34,669 bases of DNA. Source: a virus. Position numbers and translations under genes: made by a program. Below are positions 1-34,669 of this stretch, one piece after another. Numbering within the stretch: position 1 is the first letter of the stretch; every line of letters starts with the position of its first letter. The DNA is taken from UHGV virus genome UHGV-0090561; one strand, written 5' to 3'. The notes below the pieces were generated by a model. That model did not search any database and was not told where the DNA came from. It saw only the letters and a list, made by a program, of their open reading frames with translations.

Positions 1-343
1 CATCCAGAAAACGGGCGTAAACCTTACGCCTGACCACCGTTCCGCCGACCAGACTCTGCAGATCTTCCGCCATCCCGGTGACCATGCCGTACAGGTTAGA
101 AACCGTCAGCGTGGGGCGCGTACTGGTGCCTTTGCCATTCAGTTCAAAACCACTCCCCTGAATGGGATACGCCTGATACTGCCGCCCCTGCCAGGTGACC
201 GGCTCACCTTTTTCGTTCTGCTCATTACAGAAAAAATAACGTTCACCACCGACCTCTGTCAGATCGATTTCCCAGAGCACCACGCTGGCCGACTGCTCCG
301 CACGGGTGCATTCATTCAGTGTTTCCTGTCGGATATCCTGCAT
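1..343 (-). CDS. L: Minor tail protein L, 5' portion (gene continues beyond window start)
   Basis: Reverse-strand translation from the ATG at 341-343 begins MQDIRQETLNECTRAEQSASVVLWEIDLTEVGGERYF, which I recognise as lambda gpL; ATGA overlap with the M stop codon. Confidence 0.9.
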   Translation of the reverse strand, partial: MQDIRQETLNECTRAEQSASVVLWEIDLTEVGGERYFFCNEQNEKGEPVTWQGRQYQAYPIQGSGFELNGKGTSTRPTLTVSNLYGMVTGMAEDLQSLVGGTVVRRKVYARFLD

Positions 344-672
344 CAGTTCACCACCTGTTCAAACTCTGCGCTGAACTCAACACGCAACATACTGACCCGC
401 GACGACCATTTTGCGCAGGTCACCTTTATCTGCCGGTAGCCATAAGGCGGCGTCCACAGAAAGGCCTTCCAGCCCCCGTGCTCAGCCAGAAACGACTCCA
501 GCGCCGCGGCCTCCCAACGGGGAACAGAAAGCGTCACGCTGTACGTTTTCAGGTCAGTGTTCAGCCCGGCAGGCGCTCGCAGGGAATAGCCATCACCAAA
601 GCGCACCTTTCTTACGGAAGGGGCCGAAGCCACATCCATACCCGGTTTCACTTTCCAGCGGAAGGTTTTCAT
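343..672 (-). CDS. M: Minor tail protein M
   Basis: 109-aa ORF MKTFRWKVKPGMDVAS...SAEFEQVVN is near-identical to recalled lambda gpM; sits between H and L as in lambda. Confidence 0.95.
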   Translation of the reverse strand: MKTFRWKVKPGMDVASAPSVRKVRFGDGYSLRAPAGLNTDLKTYSVTLSVPRWEAAALESFLAEHGGWKAFLWTPPYGYRQIKVTCAKWSSRVSMLRVEFSAEFEQVVN

Positions 673-3230
673 CGTCCACCTCCGGAGAACAGACCACCAT
701 CGCGCATCTGCCCGGTCACAACATCCATTGCCGCCTTACGGGCTACGTCATAAACAGCCTTCAGCGCCTGTGGCCCTATCTGACCGTTCGTGCCGTCGTT
801 GTTAATCACCACATGGTTATTCTGCTCAAACTTCCCGGACGCCTGCGACCGGCTGTCCGCCATGCTGCCCGGTGTACCGACATAACCACCGGTGGCATAG
901 CCGCGCATCAGCCGGTAGAGATTCCCCACGCCAATCCGGCTGGTTGCCTCCTTCGTGAAGACAAATTCACCGCGGTGAACAATCCCCGCAGGCTCATATT
1001 TGCCGCCGGTTCCCGTAAATCCCCCGGTCGCAAAATGGAATTTCGCCGCAGCTGCCTGAATGGCTGTACCGCCTGACGCTGATGCGTCACCACCGACAGC
1101 ACCGCCAATGACACTGCCGACACTCCCGACAATCCCCACCATTGCCTGCTTAAGCAGAATTTCTGTCATCATGGACAGCACGGAACGGGTGAAGCTGCGC
1201 CAGTTCTGCTCACTGCCGGTCAGCATCGCCGCCATATTCTGCGCAATACCATCAAAGGTCTGCGTGGCAGCACTTTTAACCTGCGACATACTGTCCGTGG
1301 CACTCTCTTTCCACTCGCTCCAGCCGGACTTCAGGCCAGCCATCCAGCTCCCGCGAAGCAGGTCTTCAGCTGCCCAGGTCTTTTTCTGCTCTGACATGAC
1401 GTTATTCAGCGCCAGCGGATTATCGCCATACTGCTCCTTCAGACGCTGTTCCGTGGCGTCCCGCGCTGCCTGCCGGTCAGTAAGCCCCCGGTTTTTCGCC
1501 TCAATGGCTGCCCGTTTTGCCCGTTGTTGCTGTGCGAACTTATCCGCCTGCTGCGCCAGCGCGTTCAGGTGCTCCTGATACGTGACCTTATCGCCAAGTA
1601 CAGCCAGCTGGCGTTTGTACTCCAGCGTCTCATCTTTATGCGCCAGCAGGGATTTCTCCTGTGCGGATAGCTGGCGACGTTGTGCCGCCTCCTCCAGTAC
1701 CGCGAACTGATTTTCCGCCTTCCACAAATCCCGGCGCTGCTGGCTGATTTTCTCATTCGCTCCGGCATGCTTCTCCAGCGTCCGGAGTTCTGCCTGAAGC
1801 GTCAGCAGGGCAGCATGAGCACTGTCTTCCTGACGATCGCCCGCAGACACCTTCACGCCGGACTGTTTCGGCTTTTTCAGCGTCGCTTCATAATCCTTTT
1901 TCGCCGCCGCCATCAGCGTGTTGTAATCTGCCTGCAGGATTTTCCCGTCTTTCAGTGCCTTGTTCAGTTCTTCCTGACGGGCGGTATATTTCTCCAGCGG
2001 TGTCTGCAGCCGTTCGTAAGCCTTCTGCGCCTCTTCGGTATATTTCAGCCGTGATGCTTCGGTATCGCTCTGCTGCTGCGCATTTTTGTCCTGTTGACTC
2101 TGCTGTTCAGCCTTCTTTCGGGCGGCTTCAAGCGCAAGACGGGCCTTTTCACGATCATCCCAGTAACGCGCCCGCGCTTCATCGTTAACAAAATAATCAT
2201 CCTTGCGCAGATTCCAGATGTCGTCCGCTTTCTTAAACGCAGCCTCTGCCTTAATCAGCATCTCCTGAGCGGTATCAGGGCGACCAATATCCAGCACCGC
2301 ATCCCACATGGATTTGAATGCCCGCGCTGTCCTGTCTGCCCAGGTCTCCAGCGTACCCATGTTCTCTTTCAGGCGGCGGGTCTGGTCATCAAACCCTTTC
2401 GTCGCGGCCTCGTTCGCCGCCTGCAATGCCCCGGCTTCATCGCCGGAACGCTGCAACTGAGCAACATACGCAATCTGCTCCGCCGTCACGTTATGGAACT
2501 GGCGTGCCATCGCCGTCAGCCCCGACGTCGGGTCTGTGGTCAGCTTCCCGAAGGCTTCAGCGACCTTGTCCACCTCCACGCCGGATGCAGAGGAGAAACG
2601 CGCCACACTCTGGCTGATGGATGCAATCTGAGCCTCACCGCTTACTCCCGCCTTAACCAGTGCGCTGAGTGACTCGCTGGTCTGGTTAAACGTCAGCCCT
2701 GCCGCCTGCCCGGCTCTGGACAGGACCAGCATGCGATCTGCCGTCAGACCCGACTGATTGCCGGAAAGGACCAGCGTTTTGTTGAAATCGGACAGGGTTG
2801 AGTTGCCCTGATACCAGGCATACGCCAGCGCACCGGTCGCCACCGCCAGCGAGGTGGCCCCCACCATCGGCAGGGTGATCGCACCGGCAAGCCCCCTGAA
2901 CATGGGGATCATCCCGCCGAAGGAGTCCTTAACCTGCCCCCCCTGTTGCAGCAGGATCAGCCACGGACTTTGCCCGCCTGCAAGCTGCGTGGCCACGTCG
3001 GTGAACTGTGCAGGAAGCATACGCATGGCGGCTTTATACTGTCCGACGGAAATCCCCGCTTTCTGTGCAGCCAGCGCCTGCCGGTTCATTGACTGTTCAA
3101 CGACTGCCGCTGTTTTTTTCGCATCACTTTCCGTACCGGAAAAATGACGCCTGACTCTGGCCATCTGCTCGTCAAATCTGGCCGCATCCAGACTCAAATC
3201 AACGACCAGATCGCCTACCGGTTCAGCCAT
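669..3230 (-). CDS. H: Tail tape measure protein H
   Basis: 853-aa ORF, the length of lambda gpH, with recognisable N-terminus MAEPVGDLVVDLSLDAARFDEQMARVRRHF and long coiled-coil repeats. Confidence 0.95.
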   Translation of the reverse strand: MAEPVGDLVVDLSLDAARFDEQMARVRRHFSGTESDAKKTAAVVEQSMNRQALAAQKAGISVGQYKAAMRMLPAQFTDVATQLAGGQSPWLILLQQGGQVKDSFGGMIPMFRGLAGAITLPMVGATSLAVATGALAYAWYQGNSTLSDFNKTLVLSGNQSGLTADRMLVLSRAGQAAGLTFNQTSESLSALVKAGVSGEAQIASISQSVARFSSASGVEVDKVAEAFGKLTTDPTSGLTAMARQFHNVTAEQIAYVAQLQRSGDEAGALQAANEAATKGFDDQTRRLKENMGTLETWADRTARAFKSMWDAVLDIGRPDTAQEMLIKAEAAFKKADDIWNLRKDDYFVNDEARARYWDDREKARLALEAARKKAEQQSQQDKNAQQQSDTEASRLKYTEEAQKAYERLQTPLEKYTARQEELNKALKDGKILQADYNTLMAAAKKDYEATLKKPKQSGVKVSAGDRQEDSAHAALLTLQAELRTLEKHAGANEKISQQRRDLWKAENQFAVLEEAAQRRQLSAQEKSLLAHKDETLEYKRQLAVLGDKVTYQEHLNALAQQADKFAQQQRAKRAAIEAKNRGLTDRQAARDATEQRLKEQYGDNPLALNNVMSEQKKTWAAEDLLRGSWMAGLKSGWSEWKESATDSMSQVKSAATQTFDGIAQNMAAMLTGSEQNWRSFTRSVLSMMTEILLKQAMVGIVGSVGSVIGGAVGGDASASGGTAIQAAAAKFHFATGGFTGTGGKYEPAGIVHRGEFVFTKEATSRIGVGNLYRLMRGYATGGYVGTPGSMADSRSQASGKFEQNNHVVINNDGTNGQIGPQALKAVYDVARKAAMDVVTGQMRDGGLFSGGGR

Positions 3231-3657
3231 ACCGGACTCCTCCTGCGATCCCTTCTGATACTGTCATCAGCATTACGTCATCCTCCGTCATGTCCGCCAC
3301 ATCCGGGGAAGCGGGGATAACTTCATTCCCGTCCGGGCCAAAGCGGACACCTCCGGCAAGCCCTGCCGCTTTCTGCATCAGCACATCATCTTCAGGCTCT
3401 TCGTCAGCCTCGCGCCGGTTCAGCAGACTGAAATCCAGCGGATGCATATCCGGATCGCTGAAAAACAGGCTGAGTACGGTGTACGTCAGCCCGGAAAAGT
3501 GCATATCCAGCAGAACATCATGAAAATAATGGGTACTGTAAAAGCGGTGCCAGTCGGCATACTCCGTGGATGACATCCCGGCAAGCATGGCACGCCAGTC
3601 GGGTCGCCCCATCTCGCGCGCCAGTTTCAGGGCAAAACTCAGCTCACCGTCGAACAC
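3223..3657 (-). CDS. T: T frame of the G-T tail assembly chaperone (expressed by -1 frameshift from G)
   Basis: ORF overlapping the 3' end of G in the -1 frame and directly upstream of H, as in lambda; slippery heptamer present. Confidence 0.85.
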   Translation of the reverse strand: MFDGELSFALKLAREMGRPDWRAMLAGMSSTEYADWHRFYSTHYFHDVLLDMHFSGLTYTVLSLFFSDPDMHPLDFSLLNRREADEEPEDDVLMQKAAGLAGGVRFGPDGNEVIPASPDVADMTEDDVMLMTVSEGIAGGVRYG

Positions 3658-25000: not shown

Positions 25001-25148
25001 AAATGATAATACATATCAATTACACTTAAAGGGGGGGGGGTTAATTTGTTCACATCAACACTCCGGACCCCAATGGCCTTCTACTCTGGTTTTGCCATAA
25101 AATAGTCCTGATACATATTCATATCAGTTAGTCATATACGGAAAAAAT

Positions 25149-25475
25149 ATGGGCATTACTATTTTCAGCAGTGAAATACAGGATGTTGATAGCGAAGCGA
25201 TGTACAAGAGTTGGCTAGCGACCCATTCCGATGGATTCGTTATTAATCTGCTTAAGTCGGCCAGCGGGAAAGGCAGAAAAAATGATGCCAGATTTACGCG
25301 GATTCATCGAGCCTCATGCAAATCAATCAACCCGTTAATCAGCCCAAAAAATCACGCCGGCTTTACTACTGGCCGATACCAAAAAGTATGTGTTCTTACG
25401 CTTGACGAGGCCGAGTCCACCGCAGGCCAACTAACAGGACTGCCAACCATCCAGAGATGTCATTGGTGTATATAA
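25149..25475 (+). CDS. Hypothetical protein (accessory gene between cos and lysis cassette, opposite strand)
   Basis: 108-aa ORF in an AT-rich stretch, followed by a terminator hairpin; no recognised family. Confidence 0.45.
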   Translation: MGITIFSSEIQDVDSEAMYKSWLATHSDGFVINLLKSASGKGRKNDARFTRIHRASCKSINPLISPKNHAGFTTGRYQKVCVLTLDEAESTAGQLTGLPTIQRCHWCI

Positions 25476-25516
25476 GATACTGCAGTTACGATGGGCCTGC
25501 CCATGATGACGGAATA

Positions 25517-25540
25517 ATAAACCGCCAAAAAGGCGGTTAT
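25517..25540. terminator. Bidirectional intrinsic terminator hairpin
   Basis: AACCGCC-aaaaa-GGCGGTT hairpin flanked by A/T runs, between the convergent 108-aa and 95-aa ORFs; position hand-counted. Confidence 0.6.
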
Positions 25541-25827
25541 TAAATTTGACCTCTTGACTTTTCTATTTCATAAAGACCCACTCCATCTCCTGCATCAAGC
25601 AATGCATAATATTCAGGGTCTTTAATTCGATCTATCTGATTTGAAATTTCAAGTAACTCGTCCTTTAAAGAATCTACTTCAGAGGCTAATCTTTCATTTT
25701 CATCCCTCAGCTCCCTAACTTCTTGCTGTAAAGACAGTAAGCTCTTCCCGGTTGCTGGAAATCGGTTTATCTCATGCCAGATTGCAACTATTAAAGCTAA
25801 TAGCGCAACGGTTAAAGATGTCATCAT
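25540..25827 (-). CDS. Hypothetical membrane-anchored coiled-coil protein
   Basis: 95-aa ORF with N-terminal hydrophobic helix (LTVALLALIVAIW) then a heptad-like charged region. Confidence 0.5.
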   Translation of the reverse strand: MMTSLTVALLALIVAIWHEINRFPATGKSLLSLQQEVRELRDENERLASEVDSLKDELLEISNQIDRIKDPEYYALLDAGDGVGLYEIEKSRGQI

Positions 25828-25934
25828 TGGTCTCCCTTTACTTTACGGGATATAGCACCATCACAGACACTCTACGAGATCCTGTGATGGTGAGATTAGA
25901 ATGGAGGCTGTCTATGGTGATGCACCTGTGGATG

Positions 25935-26474
25935 TTATGATTTTTCGATCATTTTTATTACATTTTTGGCTGGCTTAATTTTCATCGTATCGCCGGTAGC
26001 AAGGTGCACAAGCAACATTAATTTGCGAACGTTGCCGCCCTGTTTCCATATCTTATTTTTCATATCTCTGGCCCAGTCGCCATTAGTATCATTTTGAATA
26101 AAGAAAAATGCATATTCGCCATGCTCAATTTTTTTTGGTAAATCGTCACCAAACCCACCCCCCAGAATCTGAAGTAGTGAGTTTTTTGTACCGAACGTCC
26201 ATGTTACTGAAGTTATAGTTGCGGTTTGAATGCCAACATTTGCAATGTTGATCGTAACTCCAAACGTGCTCACATTTTGGCCTGTGATGCCCCCAAGCGA
26301 TACTGTTCCTCTTAACTTCGGTCGAGGTCGACGGTTAGAAATATATAAAGTCAGGCATACTGCCATAAAGGTTGCAATGCCTGAAAACCACGTTCCTACC
26401 ATTGACCAAAAAGCCCATTCTGCTGTATTTCTAGTGGCAACCAATGATTCGTAAGCTATATAATCTGCGTTCAT
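25935..26474 (-). CDS. Hypothetical membrane protein (accessory gene)
   Basis: About 179 aa from the ATG with GAGGTG Shine-Dalgarno; predicted TM helix (WAFWSMVGTWFSGIATFMAVCLTLYI); AT-rich; upstream extension in the ORF track not supported. Confidence 0.55.
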   Translation of the reverse strand: MNADYIAYESLVATRNTAEWAFWSMVGTWFSGIATFMAVCLTLYISNRRPRPKLRGTVSLGGITGQNVSTFGVTINIANVGIQTATITSVTWTFGTKNSLLQILGGGFGDDLPKKIEHGEYAFFFIQNDTNGDWARDMKNKIWKQGGNVRKLMLLVHLATGDTMKIKPAKNVIKMIEKS

Positions 26475-26792
26475 CTTCACCTCATTTATCGATGAAGTGA
26501 TTGTAACTAAAAGCATTATCGCAAGCACTAAGTGAATGCCAACCACACTCTCGCAGTAGCTGCGCTCATTCCCTTGAGGCCATGTGTCAGGGGTATCTCG
26601 TGAATCCCTCACCACTAACCGGAAGCTGACTGGCGACCAGCCTGGAGTACCGGTGCGCTTCTTCCCGTTACCCCTCACCAGTACGCCCTCAGCTTTTTAC
26701 CTGAGACTGGCTACCCGCAACTTTGGGTATTCGGGGCAGCATCATGACTGCTGCATTGGCGCCACTTGCCACGGTCCGTCTGCTTTACTGCT

Positions 26793-27050
26793 TCATAGCT
26801 TGATCCTCTCTGCTTCAATTTTTCGAATATCAGCTTTATCTCGGTTACAGGTCGCCAGCGCGGAAAGCAGACTGACATTCAAATCCAGACTGCCCCCATA
26901 GGTCAGCGGATCAGGAATAACTGGTTGTGGGGTCTCAGTGGTCAGATTCGCCGGTAGCGGTACCGCTGGAACTGGTACGTAAACTGTCCGCGTACCGGCG
27001 CAGCCATTCAGCTGCACGAGCAGGAACAGGACGGGCAGCGCAATCATCAT
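26793..27050 (-). CDS. Rz1: Putative o-spanin (Rz1-like lipoprotein), overlapping the 3' end of Rz
   Basis: Starts in the +1 frame inside Rz; signal-like MMIALPVLFLLVQLNGC with a lipobox-like cysteine, then a proline-rich segment; extends past the Rz stop. Confidence 0.45.
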   Translation of the reverse strand: MMIALPVLFLLVQLNGCAGTRTVYVPVPAVPLPANLTTETPQPVIPDPLTYGGSLDLNVSLLSALATCNRDKADIRKIEAERIKL

Positions 27051-27327
27051 TCGCAACAGCCGTTTTGATATCTGTCTGGGTTCTCTGTGACTCCAGTGCA
27101 ATCTGCTGTTTTGCATGCTGGCTAGCCTCCAGAACTGTATTGACGATTTGCAGTGATTGCAGGACGTTATTGGTAATGACAGTTGCCGATTTGGCATTTT
27201 GTACAGCCTCATCAGCACGTTTCTTTTCGTGCTGATATTTGCTGTAGTAGTGGTTGGCAGACCAGATGAAAGAACCGATGACAGTAACGAGGAAAGCAGC
27301 GATAACCAGCTTATAGCTCAACTTCAT
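26935..27327 (-). CDS. Rz: i-spanin (Rz-like)
   Basis: 130-aa ORF with N-terminal TM helix and periplasmic coiled coil, immediately downstream of and overlapping the endolysin gene. Confidence 0.7.
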   Translation of the reverse strand: MKLSYKLVIAAFLVTVIGSFIWSANHYYSKYQHEKKRADEAVQNAKSATVITNNVLQSLQIVNTVLEASQHAKQQIALESQRTQTDIKTAVANDDCAARPVPARAAEWLRRYADSLRTSSSGTATGESDH

Positions 27328-27787
27328 TTACCACCCCACCAGCCTCTTTAAATCGGGAAATCAGGTCACCGATTTTATGTTCATACTGACCGTAACCTGC
27401 TCCGGGTAACGAAGCCCAGATATTGCTGCAACAGTCGATTGCCTGACGGATGTCACCGCGATCAATCATTAGTAAAGCACCACGCTCCTTAATCTGCTGC
27501 AATGCAACAGCATCCTGGCTTTTAGGAGAGAAGTCTGTCAGCCCTAACTGCTTGCGGTAAGCATCCCACCAGCGTGAAAGAAGTTGATAACGGCCTGCGG
27601 CTGTTGATTTGAGTTTCGGGTTTAGCGTGACAAGTTTTCGAGGGTGATCGGAGTAATCAGTGAAGAGTTCGCCACCGACAATAACGTCATAACCGCGGTT
27701 ACGTGTCGGTTGTCGCCCGTTATCCGTTCCTTCTGACCACGCCAACATATCGAGGAAAGCTTTACGCTGAGGATTAAGATTTTGCAT
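27311..27787 (-). CDS. R: Endolysin (lambda R-type lytic transglycosylase)
   Basis: 158-aa ORF ...NPQRKAFLDMLAWSEGTDNGRQPTRNRGYDVIVGGELFTDYSDHPRKLV... closely matches recalled lambda R. Confidence 0.93.
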   Translation of the reverse strand: MQNLNPQRKAFLDMLAWSEGTDNGRQPTRNRGYDVIVGGELFTDYSDHPRKLVTLNPKLKSTAAGRYQLLSRWWDAYRKQLGLTDFSPKSQDAVALQQIKERGALLMIDRGDIRQAIDCCSNIWASLPGAGYGQYEHKIGDLISRFKEAGGVVNEVEL

Positions 27788-28091
27788 TTTTCACCCCTGT
27801 CAGTCGTTCCCAGAAGTACGTCAGTGCAACCGAGCCCATCGCACCACTAATCCCCGCTGTCGCGAGAATCATGTAAATACTGAATCCACTTTCGATACTG
27901 ATCAGGCCACCAATAACACCGGTGAATCCCGATACCACTATCTGAGCCAGAGCATTTATCCAGCTCCACGTTGCTTTACTTTGCTTCACATCTATCAGAT
28001 AGCGGACCAGACCGCCCCAACCTGCGATGATCAGCAAAACGAGCCAGAACGCTCCGGCAAGGCTCTCTTTTTCGTGCATATGAATAGCCAA
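27774..28091 (-). CDS. S: Holin (three predicted TM helices; not lambda S-like in sequence)
   Basis: 105-aa ORF directly upstream of and overlapping R; three hydrophobic segments; possible dual-start MAIHM. Confidence 0.75.
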   Translation of the reverse strand: MAIHMHEKESLAGAFWLVLLIIAGWGGLVRYLIDVKQSKATWSWINALAQIVVSGFTGVIGGLISIESGFSIYMILATAGISGAMGSVALTYFWERLTGVKNAKS

Positions 28092-28307
28092 TGTTTCGCC
28101 GCCGACGAAAGGCCGGGACGCTAATGATTAAAAACTTACATGGGAAATATTGTTATAAACAGTCAACTCAAAATAACTAAAAAATCTTATAACTAAGCGA
28201 ATGGCCTTCAAAAGCCGATCCATGCAACTTGCATAAAACGATCTTTATCAATGAGTTACATGTGTGGTTAAATACCATGCTTTAAGGACTAAGAGCATTA
28301 CCAGCAG

Positions 28308-29111
28308 ATGACAGAAAAAGATAACATTGGTAAGTTAATTTGGCATATTGCTTGCGATGAATCTGGCATTGATGGGCAACGTTTCTACGGCTTTGGCAGT
28401 CTGTGGATGAAGTACCAACGCCGTGGGGATTTCTGTCAACTAATCAGAGAACTACGCAGCAAACATGGTTTTTTTGAAGAAATAAAATGGCAAAAAGCCC
28501 ATTCAAAAAGATACTCTGAATTTTATCTTGAGCTGATCGACTTATTCTTTAGAGTTCCTTGGCTAGCTTTTCATTGTATCGTGGTTGAAAAATCAATAGT
28601 AAACAAGGCATTTCATAATGGGGATTATGACCTGGCAAGGAGAAAGCACTTCACAAATCTCATTACCACAAAAATTAGCTCTGTAATTTCTGCACACCCT
28701 GAAAGAGACAGTTACTTCAGGATTGAAGTTGATCCTATCGCATCTCGTTATAAAAAGGCCGATGAAGAACTAAATGTTATTGCCAATAACATATTGAATA
28801 GAAAATTTGGTCGTAAAGGGATAATCAGCAGTGTAGTGACAAAAGACTCTAAAGCATCTGAAAACATTCAGCTAGCCGATTTTTTCTTAGGTGCGGTTAT
28901 GTGCGCATATCAAGGAAAAGCTTCATCTGAAGCCAAAATAAGAGTATCAAACTATGTTGCTTCATATTTAGGCTGGGATCATTTGCAATATGATACATGG
29001 CACACTGAGAGAAAATTTAATATCTGGTATTTTTATGATAAAACTCGAGGGCCACGAGATATAGAAACTCAAAATGTTAGCTTAAAGTATCCACTTCCCC
29101 AAAAGAAATAG
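28308..29111 (+). CDS. DUF3800-like protein (accessory gene between Q and S, antisense to late transcription)
   Basis: 267-aa ORF in a markedly AT-rich island; N-terminal HIACDESG and C-terminal IQLADFFLGAV resemble the DUF3800 motifs as I recall them (not HMM-verified). Confidence 0.55.
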   Translation: MTEKDNIGKLIWHIACDESGIDGQRFYGFGSLWMKYQRRGDFCQLIRELRSKHGFFEEIKWQKAHSKRYSEFYLELIDLFFRVPWLAFHCIVVEKSIVNKAFHNGDYDLARRKHFTNLITTKISSVISAHPERDSYFRIEVDPIASRYKKADEELNVIANNILNRKFGRKGIISSVVTKDSKASENIQLADFFLGAVMCAYQGKASSEAKIRVSNYVASYLGWDHLQYDTWHTERKFNIWYFYDKTRGPRDIETQNVSLKYPLPQKK

Positions 29112-29332
29112 ACGTCGACCTCTCAGCCGACACGGTTGGAGTCCCAGACCAATTATCGAGTCGAAGTTACCAACTTGGCGGTTATCTTTTGGGAGCCGCC
29201 CCTTCATTCCCAAAACCTTTATTGCAGAAAAATCTATATCCTGGAAATTGGATAGTCAACCCTTACGACACCTACGAACAGTTGCACATACAACATTGGC
29301 AAAATATCAGATTTACACGGAATATATGCCTT

Positions 29333-30022
29333 TCAATCCAGTTTTGCAATACTTTGCTGTGAAAATGTCGTCTTTTGTTTTGAACGTGTTCTCGTTACAA
29401 GCAATAAAGCTTCGCTATCAAGCTGTAGAAAAATGTGCTTCATTGCAACCCAGCGTTCAGTAAATGTCTCAGACCAGTTTTTTGATGTCACTCCCACCAG
29501 TGATGCCAGCTCCTGGTATTCATAGGTCTTACGCCCTGCCAGCTCGTTCTTCACATCCTGTGCCGCCAGCCAGATCAACTTCTTCAAACGTTCCAGTGTC
29601 TTACCTGCAATTTTTCTGGTACCCAACAGAGTCTTAAACTCGCTCCATGCCCACTGAGTTATGGCAACCTGATGCTCCCAGCGAACACTTTCGCTGTAAC
29701 TCCACAGCAACCACGCTTTCTGATGTTCATCAAGAGACAGAACCGCGCGGCGCCATGAAGAGGTTGAGAACTCAACCTGGCTGACCAGTGCAATGGATGA
29801 ACCTTTTGCGTACGACTGCTTACCGGAAATCGGCGGATTATCCAGCGTAATCATCCTGCCAGTTACCTCATCCAGAATGCTCGGCTTCTTTCGTTTGTAT
29901 GTACCAGTATCAAATTGAGCATGCTCCAGCCAGGCTTCAAGCTGGCCTTTCGTTACTCCGCTCAAATCAGCGGTAGCCACCATGAGTTGCTCGCGAACAT
30001 ACTGTAAATATTGGGTATTCAT
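29333..30022 (-). CDS. Putative late-gene antiterminator Q (non-lambda Q family)
   Basis: 229-aa ORF between rusA and the lysis cassette, where Q sits in lambdoid phages; resembles phage-82-type Q proteins as I recall them; not lambda Q. Confidence 0.5.
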   Translation of the reverse strand: MNTQYLQYVREQLMVATADLSGVTKGQLEAWLEHAQFDTGTYKRKKPSILDEVTGRMITLDNPPISGKQSYAKGSSIALVSQVEFSTSSWRRAVLSLDEHQKAWLLWSYSESVRWEHQVAITQWAWSEFKTLLGTRKIAGKTLERLKKLIWLAAQDVKNELAGRKTYEYQELASLVGVTSKNWSETFTERWVAMKHIFLQLDSEALLLVTRTRSKQKTTFSQQSIAKLD

Positions 30023-30968: not shown

Positions 30969-31423
30969 TACGCCTCCTGCTTGTCGCGCAGCAGCTGGAA
31001 CTCGCAGCTCTGCGGAATAGTCAGGTGGCAACCAATATTCATTGCCCAGGTTTCAATCTTACACAGGAAGACATACATCTCTCCGGTATCAAGATCGGAG
31101 GTATGGCGTAACGACTGGATAGTAGTGATTTCGCCGGTTACGACATCAACCAGGTCCTTGGTTTCATAACCGAGGTATGTGTGTTTGAGAGCATCTTTTA
31201 CCCATGCTGCGGTAGCGAACGATTTCCCCCTGTTGATGAGGTATTCACTGATTTCGCTGTACCACATGTGGCTGAGTGCATTCTGGGAAAGACTGCGTTT
31301 CTCACGCCACGGTTTAAGCACCATGCGAAAGCATTTTCCGTCCTCCAGATAAGGCTGGATCTGCTGGCCGATAGCGGTGAAGTTACCGCGATGCAGTTTG
31401 ATGCCATCTTGTGGTAGGTTCAC
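30968..31423 (-). CDS. ybcN: YbcN-like nin-region protein
   Basis: 151-aa [60 protein letters not shown] matches DLP12 YbcN as I recall it. Confidence 0.8.
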
Positions 31424-31620
31424 GCTTCACCTCCGCAGAGGTCAGACGCTGGATGCAAAAAATCGCAGGTGCATTTCTGCATCTGTGAAGGGAGAAGAGA
31501 GTTTGGATTGTATGTGCGCATAAACGTCCCCGTTTAGCGCAGAAGTCACCGGAGTTGTTCAGGCCCCGATGAGATGATTATGGCGGGTTGATAGCTGGAA
31601 ATCAAATTGCTTTCATGTCT

Positions 31621-31824
31621 TCAAATAACCTTCAATTTTTCGATTTGGCTTTCTCGATAGGCTATCTCTTTTTGTATTTCATCCAGACGACCTTGATTGT
31701 ATTCACCTTCAAGAGCGTCCTCGCATATAGCAGTTTCTTCTTCCAAAAGTTCTCTAATTTTTCGCTGATGATGTGTCATTCCCTGCCTTGCCCCTTCTGG
31801 GGTAGATTCAAATTCTATCGTCAC
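31621..31824 (-). CDS. Hypothetical small acidic protein
   Basis: About 67 aa; AGGAGG Shine-Dalgarno with GTG/TTG start; glutamate-rich, coiled-coil-like C-terminus. Confidence 0.45.
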   Translation of the reverse strand: MTIEFESTPEGARQGMTHHQRKIRELLEEETAICEDALEGEYNQGRLDEIQKEIAYRESQIEKLKVI

Positions 31825-32038
31825 TTTCAACCCTCCTGTTTTCAGATAAACCGGATCGCTACCGATCGCTACCTTTAGGTAAAGTTATCGACTTCTCGGA
31901 ATAAAACTTCAGGCACTCATTGTACGCTTTACTAGATGCCACCAAGTTAATGTTTACCTTGTCGCCTTCGTACTAGATTTTAGCTGCTATGTTAAAGTCT
32001 GACATATCGGTATCAAGTCAATAAGTTGCATAATTTCT

Positions 32039-32058
32039 AAAAAACCCGCCAAAGCGGG
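32039..32058 (-). terminator. Rho-independent terminator downstream of the NADAR-like gene
   Basis: Minus-strand hairpin CCCGC-tttg-GCGGG followed by a U-run (plus strand aaaaaaCCCGCCAAAGCGGGtt); position hand-counted. Confidence 0.6.
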
Positions 32059-32099
32059 TTTGCAGATCTGTCACGACAGTGAAAGGAACAACAGCCACA

Positions 32100-32717
32100 T
32101 TAAAAAAGCGATAAGCTTTGCCCCGAATTCATCGGTAGTGGAGAGAAAGTAACATCACGTATTTGCTCCCCGAGCAGAAGAAACCTATCCAAGGGTAGCG
32201 GCGGTATCGTAGCAAACCCTGAAAGCCCCTTCTTTCTTGCAACATCTCTCGCATCCATAAGGATACGACCTAACACGTTCATACCATAAAAGTTACCTTC
32301 GGAGTCTTTACTAGCCCCCCAAAATTGGTCCTTCTCTGAGTGCTCAACAATGTCATGCTCTCCTGTGCTATCCAGGAGCGCGAAAAACGATTCCCAGTTC
32401 TGGCAAAGCTTAACGCAGACACACCATTTCATTACCGAAACTCGATTTTTTTCCCAACCTGCACGGGTTTTGGCTTCGAAAGATCTGGCAGTTTGTTTAG
32501 CTTCATAAGGGTTGCCTTGGGTAATAATAGCCTTTTGGATATCTGGATAGTCTGGATATCGGCATGCTTGGTAAAGAATTTCACTCGATTGAATGGGTAT
32601 ACCATTAACTAAGAGCGGATATCCTTTGGCCATGTTGGAAAGCCCCCCCCATTTCTCGGTGGTTTTCCTGAAAGAAACTGTGTTGTGAAACAGGTATAGT
32701 CTATAGCTCATGATCAC
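32100..32717 (-). CDS. NADAR-domain (YbiA-like, DUF1768) protein, putative
   Basis: 205-aa ORF; N-terminal FRKTTEKWGGLSNMAKGYP...SSEILYQACRY fits the NADAR N-terminal pattern as I recall it; ATGA overlap with the upstream gene. Confidence 0.55.
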   Translation of the reverse strand: MIMSYRLYLFHNTVSFRKTTEKWGGLSNMAKGYPLLVNGIPIQSSEILYQACRYPDYPDIQKAIITQGNPYEAKQTARSFEAKTRAGWEKNRVSVMKWCVCVKLCQNWESFFALLDSTGEHDIVEHSEKDQFWGASKDSEGNFYGMNVLGRILMDARDVARKKGLSGFATIPPLPLDRFLLLGEQIRDVTFSPLPMNSGQSLSLF

Positions 32718-33733
32718 CGATTATACACATTACGCTTCATAAGTGGATACCAACAATCCAGAGCTCTATTTCCCGTTCGAAGATAAGTTCCCCACCAGTA
32801 CGCTAGAGGGGTATTATTGGGGCAGTTTCTGAAAGTAAAGATAGTTCCACCAAACCCAACACCATTGAAAGTTGAAAAGCCTAAAGGTTTTATAACATCA
32901 GAAGGATTTTGACTCTGACTAAGGATATCAAACCCAACTTTTGTCATAATTGCTTCAAAACGATCTCGTCTCTGCTCATTAGGGAAAAATTTATTCGCGA
33001 CGTAACCGTCACGATATGTTCCTAAATAATGTACTTGACCGTCAGCCCATTCAGGTATTGATACACTTTGCGCTTTTGGCCAAAAAACCTCAGAACTCGA
33101 ACTGTTTCGGCGTTGATTTTCAACAACTGCAAACTCACCAACACCAACGCAAACTGAAATATTCCTATCAGCAAATTTTCGTTCAAGTTGGTTTTTTATC
33201 TTCCATGCTGAATACGTGTGCCCGCCTAAAAAGTACACCAATATTGTAATATTTTGGAGTTCAAAGTGCTCAATAAACCAAGTTAAATCATTGATTGCCT
33301 TAGCTCCTGAGAATGAAACATCGTCAAAGTAAATAAATTCACGGAATGAACTAACTCTTTGACGTTGTGACAGTCTGGTCACAACGTTGAATTCTTCCAC
33401 ACAATCTTCTCGAAGCAAATCCAAAAACTCAGATTGACTGGTGCCTTGGTTCTGGATATCGAGAAACGCTGCGGTTTGAAAGAACCTTTCATTTTGCTCA
33501 TCATTGGCGATACTACTAATAACTCTGCGATAGTCGCTCTCAGAGAAGTATCCAATCCCCATTAATCGGTCCGTTTCCTCTAAGACAAATCGCCTATCGG
33601 TTAACTCAAATTGATTAATCCATCGATTAACATGATCAATGCTCATGCCACCTTGAGGAGGGTTTCGATAGTCATTTAGTTTAGTAGCAATTTGCCCCAT
33701 AAGATCACGATCTGTAACATTGCTATAACACAT
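32714..33733 (-). CDS. Phosphoribosyltransferase-like protein (type I PRTase PRPP-binding motif), function unknown
   Basis: 339-aa ORF, AT-rich; motif FIYFDDVSFSGAKAI resembles the PRPP-binding loop (hydrophobic x4, DD, then small residues and G); flanking domains unrecognised. Confidence 0.5.
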   Translation of the reverse strand: MCYSNVTDRDLMGQIATKLNDYRNPPQGGMSIDHVNRWINQFELTDRRFVLEETDRLMGIGYFSESDYRRVISSIANDEQNERFFQTAAFLDIQNQGTSQSEFLDLLREDCVEEFNVVTRLSQRQRVSSFREFIYFDDVSFSGAKAINDLTWFIEHFELQNITILVYFLGGHTYSAWKIKNQLERKFADRNISVCVGVGEFAVVENQRRNSSSSEVFWPKAQSVSIPEWADGQVHYLGTYRDGYVANKFFPNEQRRDRFEAIMTKVGFDILSQSQNPSDVIKPLGFSTFNGVGFGGTIFTFRNCPNNTPLAYWWGTYLRTGNRALDCWYPLMKRNVYNR

Positions 33734-33936
33734 ATAGATTCCTGTTCATGCATTGATACGAAAGGATCAGAATACTCTTAAAATAATTTAGTGAAAGCCT
33801 TAAAAGTCATAATGTTAACATGTATCACAAATTGTGATTTTTCTCAGTATCTGAGACGTAAACTGAATCCAAGACCACTAATCTGGCTCAAAAAATTTAG
33901 AAAGTTTCTCATAATGAATAATTGCCTCTTTGCCCG

Positions 33937-34638
33937 TCATACACTTGCTCCTTTCAGTCCGAACTTAGCTTTGATTTCTGCGATCTTCGCCAAAGCCTGT
34001 GCACGATTTAGAGGTCTACCGCCCATGACAGGAAGTTGTTTTACTGGTTCAGGTATCGCCTCACCACGGTTAATTCGCGCGGTCATACAGGACAGTTCAT
34101 CGGCAGCCTTGCGCCGCAATTCCGCGTCAGTCAACGCATTGGCCCGCATGTTCTGGTACAGGTTGGTAACCAGCCAGTAGTGCGCGTTTGATTTCCACGG
34201 ATAAGACTCTGCATCCGGATACAGGCCACGCTTCCGGCAATACTCGTAAACCATATCAACCAGCTCGCTGACGTTTGGCAGCCCGGCGTTAACGGATGCT
34301 TCTTCCCGGCACCAGGCGACAAACTGTCCGGGTGATGGCAGGAATGGTCTATTCTGCCGACGGGCGACACGCATTCCGGCGCTCACCTGTTCCATCGTGG
34401 TGATCCCGTTTTCCCGGAAAGCCAGAACCCACTGGCGGCGGATTTCGTTCAGTTCGTTCTGGTCACGGTTAGCCAGGCTCGCCGGGAAAGTTGCCAGTAA
34501 CTGGCTGAATACACCGTTGATTATCTGCGCTACCTGCTGTACCTGCGGCTTTTCGTCGTACTGTTCCGGCATGTTGTTGGCGATCCGGCGCATCTGCTCA
34601 CGGTCAAAATTAATCATCTGTGCGGCGATGTTTTTCAT
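33937..34638 (-). CDS. P: Replication protein P (DnaB helicase loader)
   Basis: 233-aa ORF MKNIAAQMINFDREQMRRIANNMPEQYDEKPQVQQVAQIINGVFSQLL... matches lambda P. Confidence 0.95.
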   Translation of the reverse strand: MKNIAAQMINFDREQMRRIANNMPEQYDEKPQVQQVAQIINGVFSQLLATFPASLANRDQNELNEIRRQWVLAFRENGITTMEQVSAGMRVARRQNRPFLPSPGQFVAWCREEASVNAGLPNVSELVDMVYEYCRKRGLYPDAESYPWKSNAHYWLVTNLYQNMRANALTDAELRRKAADELSCMTARINRGEAIPEPVKQLPVMGGRPLNRAQALAKIAEIKAKFGLKGASV

Positions 34639-34669
34639 AAATCCACCCCGTAAATCCAGTCAGTGTTTG
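34635..34669 (-). CDS. O: Replication initiator O, extreme 3' end (gene continues beyond window end)
   Basis: Reverse complement of the last 35 nt reads ...DWIYGVDL, stop, with ATGA overlap onto the P start, the lambda O-P arrangement. Confidence 0.6.
   Translation of the reverse strand, partial: NTDWIYGVDL

Follow-up and report, generated by a model that had tools for sequence, protein, structure and literature searches.

The 34,669-nucleotide stretch of virus genome UHGV-0090561 analysed here (the window, in what follows) carries, between the antiterminator gene Q and the holin gene, a cassette of two genes that abut tail-to-tail: a gene encoding a DUF3800 protein and, on the opposite strand, the gene of a short structured RNA which, judged by sequence comparison, is a relative of the body of phage lambda 6S RNA. 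The DUF3800 gene was already annotated, as a member of an uncharacterised family. New are the partner-less lineage to which it belongs, the fixed arrangement in which it meets, tail to tail, a 6S-type RNA that has a promoter-like site of its own, and the comparative evidence for a 6S fold. In the reading that we prefer, and to which we give about even weight, the protein is an accessory nuclease expressed in the lysogen and probably anti-phage, the RNA unit ends late-strand transcription before the gene is reached, and Q-dependent read-through runs antisense across the gene into the holin gene. The main features are:

28126..29284, no strand: cassette replacing a spacer of phage PhiR47_2 (PhiR47_2 alignment and GC content)
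28308..29111, plus strand: DUF3800 gene, 267 amino acids (aa), predicted RNase H2-like nuclease (open reading frame and PF12686)
28245..28273, plus strand: putative DUF3800 promoter (TTATCA at 28245-28250, 17-nucleotide spacer, TG at 28265-28266, TTAAAT at 28268-28273)
29108..29223, minus strand: lambda 6S (late-leader) family RNA element (covariance model, 105.6 bits; lambda homology)
29102..29133, minus strand: terminator-like site, P1 hairpin and T-run (terminator scan, 29133..29112)
29231..29259, minus strand: promoter-like site upstream of the RNA (TTGACT-17-TAGATT, promoter scan 9/12)
29321..29349, minus strand: candidate 82-type late promoter over the end of Q (TTGCAA-17-TATATT, scan 9/12)

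In a comparison of the E. coli and Salmonella cassettes, the approximately 105 nucleotides (nt) past the DUF3800 stop codon appear far better conserved than the gene. Enterobacterales, phage Chuche and Pasteurellaceae all have the element beside the gene, the last in a diverged form. A scan of viral and metagenome collections with a 19-nt core returned at least 240 loci. Among the matches listed (L002-L279), 209 are true instances of the element, 55 of which adjoin a DUF3800 gene, while 154, lambda included, do not. The commonest version among the matches listed is found in phage lambda (J02459, 44594-44743), in reverse orientation to the query. The lambda match lies between Q (43886-44509) and S (45186-45509), an interval that we take to be that of 6S RNA, from PR' to tR'; the part homologous to the element spans J02459 44606-44719 (locus L280, 807-920). 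The covariance model R1 finds a single copy in the window, at 105.6 bits, scores the lambda copy at 99.1 bits, and detects full-length copies (52–57 bits) in four Pasteurellaceae loci outside the training set. Lambda 6S RNA has been an orphan transcript since 1971, and StxS is another short RNA made from a late promoter. The 6S transcript is reported to be made in lysogens, to associate with Hfq and to undergo processing that shortens it from about 194 to about 121 nt, its function being unexplained (PMC7547250; bioRxiv 10.1101/2024.10.31.621285).

Helices P1 and P3 of the element, described below, contain 101 G-U and 0 A-C pairs when read in the late sense, which places the RNA on the minus strand of the window, antisense to the DUF3800 gene. 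The alternative that the element belongs to the DUF3800 strand, as a 3' untranslated region or a partner RNA, was rejected in view of the lambda match and of this count. No Rfam family is found in the window at gathering thresholds, and at E<=10 the region 27900-29500 gives only chance matches to snoRNA and lncRNA families. Rfam likewise has no family for the lambda Q-S region, Rfam 15 lacking the element, and a search of 18 loci with distant or RNA-less DUF3800 genes returned only tmRNA and tRNA.

The fold of the RNA comprises five helices, listed in plus-strand numbering:

29114-29119/29126-29131, minus strand: RNA helix P1
29135-29139/29170-29174, minus strand: RNA helix P2
29147-29149/29160-29162, minus strand: RNA helix P3
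29177-29181/29196-29200, minus strand: RNA helix P4, candidate pseudoknot
29187-29194/29208-29215, minus strand: RNA helix P5

The model (P5, P4, P2 enclosing P3, and P1) was evaluated in an alignment of 53 representatives sharing less than 93% identity, read in the late sense. It leaves 93.6% of the cells paired, compared with 25–52% when the partners are slid, and in 15 pairs both members have changed. Its covariation score of 0.316 is matched by none of 500 shuffles, and slid partners give no more than 0.10. P2 and P4 are invariant in this alignment, and half of each is set by the search pattern. In the Pasteurellaceae copies, P2 reads GUGAG/CUCAC in place of GUUGG/CCAAC, and P5, though wholly different, is still paired. 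P4, in which GGCGG in the P5 loop pairs with a downstream CCGCC, would form an H-type pseudoknot; it is invariant on both sides in the Pasteurellaceae copies as well. P4 is thus devoid of covariation, and the pseudoknot is a plausible candidate, not one demonstrated by covariation. The family also features invariant loop sequences, such as GCUGAGAGGU. Single-sequence folding yields a z of about 0.3, near 0 on both strands; thermodynamic stability therefore gives no support, and the case for the RNA is comparative only. Judged from these alignments, the lambda 6S body is a member of a conserved structured-RNA family with a covarying five-helix fold, of which we found no description in the papers on lambda 6S RNA surveyed here.

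The 267-aa open reading frame (ORF) that the original prediction had noticed in an island between Q and the holin gene is confirmed at 28308..29111 on the plus strand. Its neighbours are all on the minus strand, and the gene is antisense to late transcription, as had been stated. The DUF3800 assignment, made at that time from motifs, is borne out by a Pfam profile search, which had been named as the check: PF12686 matches residues 16-197 with 42.7 bits (cut-off 21, E=1.2e-10). The identical RefSeq protein, WP_024223832.1, is annotated as 'DUF3800 domain-containing protein'. Searches at E<=1e-5 gave 500 homologues, and PF12686 is present in all of those listed (120/120). Residues D17, E18, S19, G20, D142, E153, Q188 and D191 are invariant in 40 homologues down to 52% identity. 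The hallmarks of DUF3800 proteins, an N-terminal DE and a C-terminal QxxD motif (PMC7736814), are both intact, as D17-E18 (CDESG) and Q188-x-x-D191 (QLAD). The AlphaFold model of the protein (pLDDT 90.3, pTM 0.89) has its best structural matches in RNase HII/H2A, and on this model the protein is predicted to be a nuclease with an RNase H2-like fold. A sequence search of the PDB with the protein gave no relative. Compared with homologues of 87–63% identity, synonymous differences (pS) are saturated at 0.79–0.90 and nonsynonymous differences (pN) range from 0.08 to 0.24, which is evidence of strong purifying selection on the gene.

The ATG of the DUF3800 gene is preceded by a poor Shine-Dalgarno sequence. 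The suggestion that the gene has its own promoter is strengthened by the putative site at 28245..28273, because the pattern TTATCA-N17-TG-n-TTAAAT is conserved upstream of the gene in 10 enterobacterial loci. These loci have different phage backbones, Chuche included, and the flanks of the site vary. In a simple promoter scan the window site scores 8/12, under the threshold of the scan.

Viral, metagenome and genome loci show the gene behind four antiterminator types. For instance, a Salmonella prophage copy (72% identical) again lies between antiterminator and holin on the opposite strand, with antiterminator, holin and endolysin annotated as other families. In phage Chuche and in a second lineage, present in another 44 E. 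coli genomes, the gene lies between the portal gene and genes for parB, ParM and a replication endonuclease. We identify this setting as the gpA-portal hotspot of P2-like phages, because the gpA-gpQ interval of these phages is a known hotspot, which in P2 holds old and tin (PMC9122126). In Mannheimia phage PHL101, the gene is found downstream of the CI operon, on the same strand. Chromosomal homologues adjoin PDC-S15/FRG, DitA-like and NYN-OST-HTH (NYN nuclease) genes, and one distant homologue sits inside a type I restriction-modification (R-M) operon. No recurring protein partner is seen among 14 chromosomal loci, where neighbours vary and several are of defence type. The small ORFs located just upstream of the gene in Chuche and PHL101 were considered as partners and rejected, as they share no homology with one another and are not recognized by any PADLOC model.

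The window protein matches the PADLOC model of PDC-M04A (PDLC04353; E=7.7e-35, 118 bits). Canonical PDC-M04A proteins have about 230 aa and score 239–299 bits, and the 267-aa window protein is 27% identical to them. In canonical loci, the gene of a small B protein directly follows A (L286, 210 bits; L288, 104 bits). Searches for PDC-M04B with tblastn gave only chance matches in the window (E>=0.2) and none in 28 loci of the subfamily. With B absent and A distant, the window gene is a partner-less relative of PDC-M04, not a complete system. The convergent RNA gene sits where canonical loci have PDC-M04B. No paper on PDC-M04 was found in a literature search. Unannotated PDC-M04B homologues were identified directly 3' of DUF3800 genes in Bifidobacterium phage Bbif-1 (L282, 2319-2675; tblastn E=3e-8) and in Methylobacterium (L285, 2306-2659; E=8e-18). 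It follows that Bbif-1 has a two-gene PDC-M04 candidate, the A component of which is its 'RlfA phagic protein'.

The role in defence or exclusion put forward in the original prediction stands only as an association, drawn from the PDC-M04A match, the gpA-portal hotspot, the direction shared with CI in PHL101, the defence-type neighbours and the homologue within an R-M operon; the function of the gene is probably anti-phage. Published work connects DUF3800 with type VII retrons and with accessory modules of CRISPR systems (PMC7736814, PMC10910872, PMC12669027). In the parts of the DUF3800 literature surveyed, no phenotype is reported for a stand-alone gene.

Gene and RNA diverge together. Over 40 distinct pairs, gene and element distances are correlated (Spearman 0.775; Mantel 0/2000). 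The two occur together behind the four Q types, in the gpA-portal setting and in Pasteurellaceae phages. The RNA is found alone, without a DUF3800 gene, in lambda and most other phages, and the gene is found without the RNA as homologues of 61–67% identity in Vibrio, Alteromonas, Kangiella, Colwellia and Rheinheimera, in more distant homologues from Myxococcota and at one Serratia locus. As each is found without the other, neither unit needs the other. In the locus sample, no 82-type Q is accompanied by the element in the absence of the gene, and PhiR47_2 lacks the element; this argues that the RNA arrived with the gene.

Copies of the element in the gpA-portal setting without DUF3800 (L038 2991-3105, L105 and L239) have an ogr-like gene tail-to-tail with them, about 20 nt away. 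In L038, positions 2713-2970 hold an ogr/delta-like zinc-finger gene in the position of DUF3800. Since the ogr-like gene is likewise placed tail-to-tail, the RNA can fill the same positional role for another gene, an arrangement that fits a general bumper or terminator role of the RNA.

The junction between gene and RNA is compact. The T-run of the terminator-like site at 29102..29133 overlaps, on the other strand, the stop codon and the last Lys codons of DUF3800. In DUF3800-linked copies, a T-run follows straight after P1 (mean 5.2 T per 10 nt, compared with 2.0 in unlinked copies), and inspection by eye shows no separate terminator hairpin with a T-run; the window, too, is without a tR'-type hairpin. 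In contrast, most unlinked copies feature, 3' of the element, a separate hairpin and T-run of diverse sequence (by eye; an automated detector finds 24/53). Two metagenome contigs, L204 and L226, carry the DUF3800-type P5 stem (UUUUGGGA/UCCCAAAA) and an ordinary terminator hairpin after P1, and have no DUF3800 gene; they could represent the state before gain of the gene or after its loss. In Pasteurellaceae (L004 5762-5889, L028 3274-3385), the P1 hairpin falls within the final ~30 nt of the DUF3800 reading frame, so that RNA and mRNA would be complementary there. In the PHL101 record, part of the element is annotated as a terminator.

At the other end of the RNA, 40 linked copies carry TTGAC(T/A/G)-N16-18-TAnnnT at a fixed position and with variable spacers (mean score 8.78/12, compared with 7.19 for shuffled sequences). 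Lambda-type copies have TTGACT-17-TAAATT at the corresponding place. The sequence shared with PhiR47_2 covers the 82-type late promoter candidate and extends to ~29284. The sites at 29349..29321 and 29259..29231 are therefore two tandem candidate promoters on the late strand, one resident and the other brought by the cassette.

The surrounding late-region genes are the following:

29333..30022, minus strand: antiterminator Q (Pfam Phage_antiter_Q, 313 bits; phrog_304)
27774..28091 (27774..28079 in RefSeq), minus strand: LydA-type holin, gene 1 of the lysis cassette (Pfam Phage_holin_3_3, 77.6 bits; phrog_785)
27311..27787, minus strand: GH24 lysozyme
26935..27327, minus strand: Rz

The 3' end of Q is 97.6% identical to that of phage 82 Q. 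Lambdoid phages are known to carry accessory genes, such as stx and nmpC, between Q and their lysis genes. PhiR47_2, which shares the 82-type Q and the holin with the window, lacks the insert, in agreement with the view that the gene is accessory cargo. Alignment of the window with PhiR47_2 is lost at ~29284 and regained at ~28125; the ~1.16 kb in between (28126-29284), which stand in place of ~250 unrelated nt of PhiR47_2, are therefore a cassette. The AT-rich island drawn at 28100-29250 in the original prediction holds for the gene (GC 0.368) and for the cassette as a whole (0.378), compared with 0.501 for the window, 0.474 for Q and 0.492 for holin-lysozyme, but not for the RNA part, which has a GC content of 0.50 and is not AT-rich. 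That island had been described as carrying a DUF3800-like gene; the gene is there, but the convergent RNA related to lambda 6S (29108-29223) had been overlooked.

E. coli SCU-301 carries a near-identical stretch within a DLP12-type prophage, in the order sitABCD, lambda-like structural genes, lysis genes, DUF3800, Q, ylcG, rusA, ybcO, ninE, ybcN, an alpha/beta hydrolase gene and ybcK. The full 1.8-kb arrangement is present in 44 of 5426 complete E. coli genomes, in which the DUF3800 gene is full-length and 98–100% conserved. In the near-identical genome, the prophage has frameshifts in several tail genes, and genes for immunity or replication are missing from its annotation. Where a lambdoid phage usually has such genes (31420-34669 in the window), the only annotated genes are ybcK, for a serine recombinase, from 33264 onwards, and an alpha/beta hydrolase gene (31871-32914), which is oppositely oriented. 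The prophage looks like a DLP12-type remnant, perhaps unable to express Q from an early operon.

At its other end (1-3257), the window contains the sitABCD iron/manganese transporter operon, which adjoins the tail-fibre end of the prophage. A second AT-rich patch (25100-26700, GC 0.39–0.42) extends from Rz to the small terminase gene and holds three small hypothetical ORFs (25149-25517, plus strand; 25540-25827, minus strand; 25935-26474/26678, minus strand). The last of these has only weak PHROG matches and a predicted membrane-like segment. The patch may be another slot for accessory genes. A tRNA scan found no tRNA genes in the window. In the Salmonella cassette (locus L005, 4655-4884), the stretch from the DUF3800 promoter to the holin gene contains three tRNA genes (Thr, Leu and Met), all on the late strand.

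In our preferred reading, the locus would comprise two units. The first, the DUF3800 protein, would be expressed against the direction of the late operon, from a conserved promoter of its own, and so be available in the lysogen. There it would most likely serve as a nuclease effector directed at infecting phages or at foreign nucleic acid of other kinds, RNA-DNA hybrids being one possible target. The second, an RNA of the 6S family of ~110 nt, would start at its own lambda-PR'-like promoter and end at the P1 hairpin and its U-tract. By capturing the constitutive transcription from the late promoter or promoters and ending it just short of the gene, the RNA unit would spare the gene antisense transcription in the lysogen. 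In the presence of Q, terminator-resistant polymerase that started at the 82-type late promoter would pass the RNA unit, cross the whole gene in antisense and enter the holin gene, and this read-through would turn the nuclease off during lytic growth of the phage itself.

Several observations weigh against this reading. The P1 hairpin is weak (about -10 kcal/mol, with one G-U pair) and about one third of the linked copies have no T-run, which makes termination at P1 uncertain. Lambda has the RNA and, in addition, a strong tR' hairpin, so that the conserved fold must do more than terminate. As immunity and replication genes are not annotated, Q read-through may never occur in this prophage. Moreover, canonical B is missing here, and PDC-M04 is itself only a candidate system.

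Alternatively, the RNA could be a working partner of the nuclease. It could then take the place of PDC-M04B, as an antitoxin-like inhibitor that is made constitutively and lost once an infecting phage stops host transcription, as a cis-antisense regulator of the 3' end of the mRNA, or as a scaffold or guide for the RNase H/PIWI-like fold. The co-divergence of gene and RNA (rho 0.78, Mantel 0/2000), which persists despite saturated synonymous sites, speaks for such a partnership. So does the fact that the pair has stayed together behind four Q types, in the gpA-portal setting and in Pasteurellaceae phages while the RNA underwent compensatory changes. A promoter-like site accompanies the RNA wherever the cassette sits; the RNA lies where canonical loci have PDC-M04B and overlaps the coding sequence by ~30 nt in Pasteurellaceae, and 11 structured RNAs associated with DUF3800 are already known (PMC5737381). 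Physical linkage alone, however, would yield co-divergence, and the ogr-like gene shows the identical tail-to-tail layout. Among the matches listed, 154/209 RNA copies are without DUF3800, and the Vibrio, Alteromonas, Kangiella and Myxococcota homologues are without the RNA. We regard a working partnership as a minority possibility, and we are equally tentative about its fuller form, a two-component system of DUF3800 nuclease and 6S-like RNA in which the RNA replaces PDC-M04B as inhibitor, sensor or guide. About as doubtful is the view that the two are mere neighbours, a DUF3800 moron having landed at the terminator end of a lambda-type late leader and the pair having spread by recombination, with each acting alone and the RNA keeping its own unexplained 6S-type function. 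Gene and RNA do exist separately, L204 and L226 combine the DUF3800-type P5 with a normal terminator and no gene, and the Q-lysis interval is the accessory-gene site mentioned above. Yet the compact junction, in which no separate terminator is present and the T-run is formed from the last codons, has been kept over saturating divergence, and the pair is retained in gpA-portal and Pasteurellaceae phages that have no Q or late-leader context.

It is improbable that the protein serves the phage itself, as an RNase H in replication or recombination or in counter-defence. The RNase H-like fold would suit this role, and the gene adjoins the nin recombination genes and the late region; but it opposes both early and late transcription, has its own putative promoter and is absent in close phages. 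Moreover, its homologues are found in chromosomal surroundings of defence type and in an R-M operon, and in PHL101 the gene is co-directional with the repressor gene. That the ORF is a decaying, functionless remnant is very improbable indeed. The apparently defective state of the prophage, with no immunity or replication genes annotated and frameshifted tail genes, and the poor Shine-Dalgarno sequence would be in keeping with decay. The selection data already contradict it: the ORF is full-length and 98–100% conserved in 44 genomes, pN is far below pS, the catalytic-type residues are invariant, and PF12686 is retained in 120/120 listed of the 500 homologues.

DUF3800 proteins recur in retrons, CRISPR accessory modules and defence islands, and beside eleven orphan RNAs, and their activity and phenotype are still unexplained. 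The locus described here is a simple test case in E. coli, with ~1.2 kb, one protein, one RNA, two putative promoters and well-understood neighbours (Q, the late promoter and the lysis genes). It also provides what is apparently the first comparative evidence for a conserved, covarying lambda 6S fold, shared by lambdoid phages with different Q, gpA-portal phages and Pasteurellaceae phages, so that a transcript long without explanation becomes a defined RNA family, open to designed mutation. Should RNA and nuclease cooperate, the association of DUF3800 genes with RNAs would be explained. In that case, the DUF3800-associated RNA motifs would be short, constitutive, terminator-bounded phage RNAs, and lambda 6S would be the founding member of a widespread class of pseudoknot-containing RNAs with a conserved function. 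The identity of the window RNA as a late leader may in any event hint at the nature of the other DUF3800 motifs.

Among known systems, PDC-M04 shares with the window locus the DUF3800 fold and motifs and the company of mobile elements and defence islands, the R-M operon example being canonical. It differs in that the window A protein is longer and only 27% identical, and in that a convergent RNA gene stands where the B gene would be. Like lambda 6S, the element lies on the late strand, with Q and a lambda-PR'-like promoter upstream of it. Here, however, no separate tR'-type hairpin is present, a protein gene abuts tail-to-tail, Q is of the 82 type, and the element is also found in phages without Q. 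The motifs DUF3800-I to -XI are 11 structured RNAs found on either strand and either side of the gene, several of them followed by terminators, with no known function (PMC5737381); at least DUF3800-I and -IX are Rfam families (PMC11701678). Like them, the window RNA is a structured RNA that adjoins DUF3800 on the opposite strand and has a terminator-like end. Unlike them, it matches no Rfam model, is mostly found without DUF3800 and is identifiable as a late-leader RNA.

Type VII retrons and the DUF3800 proteins of CRISPR systems (TPR-DUF3800 with Cas12a2/a3; Csx32 with Cas13) have the domain, the predicted RNase H fold and the DE motif in common with the window protein. These systems are anti-phage and include a dedicated nucleic-acid component (PMC7736814, PMC10910872, PMC12669027, PMC13594972), and the function of their DUF3800 modules is likewise unexplained (10.64898/2026.08.25.746378). 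In contrast, the window protein stands alone and has an intact QxxD motif, retron proteins being reported to lack the Q. The ORF list and annotation show no reverse transcriptase, Cas gene, TPR domain or kinase near the gene; the Q-holin interval, with the DUF3800 gene, short chance ORFs and no annotated reverse transcriptase, is not that of a type VII retron. Nor does the locus resemble a type III toxin-antitoxin system (ToxIN-like), as the RNA is a single, convergent copy and not a set of upstream repeats; the top structural matches of the DUF3800 model include no ToxN type, and the fold is RNase H-like. A further parallel may be drawn with the morons of temperate phages, in the Q-lysis interval of lambdoid phages and at old/tin in P2-like phages, with which the cassette shares an own promoter, putative here, a terminator-like end, a deviating GC content, presence/absence variation and a documented hotspot. 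It differs from these morons in its cargo, a predicted DUF3800 nuclease that travels with an RNA gene.

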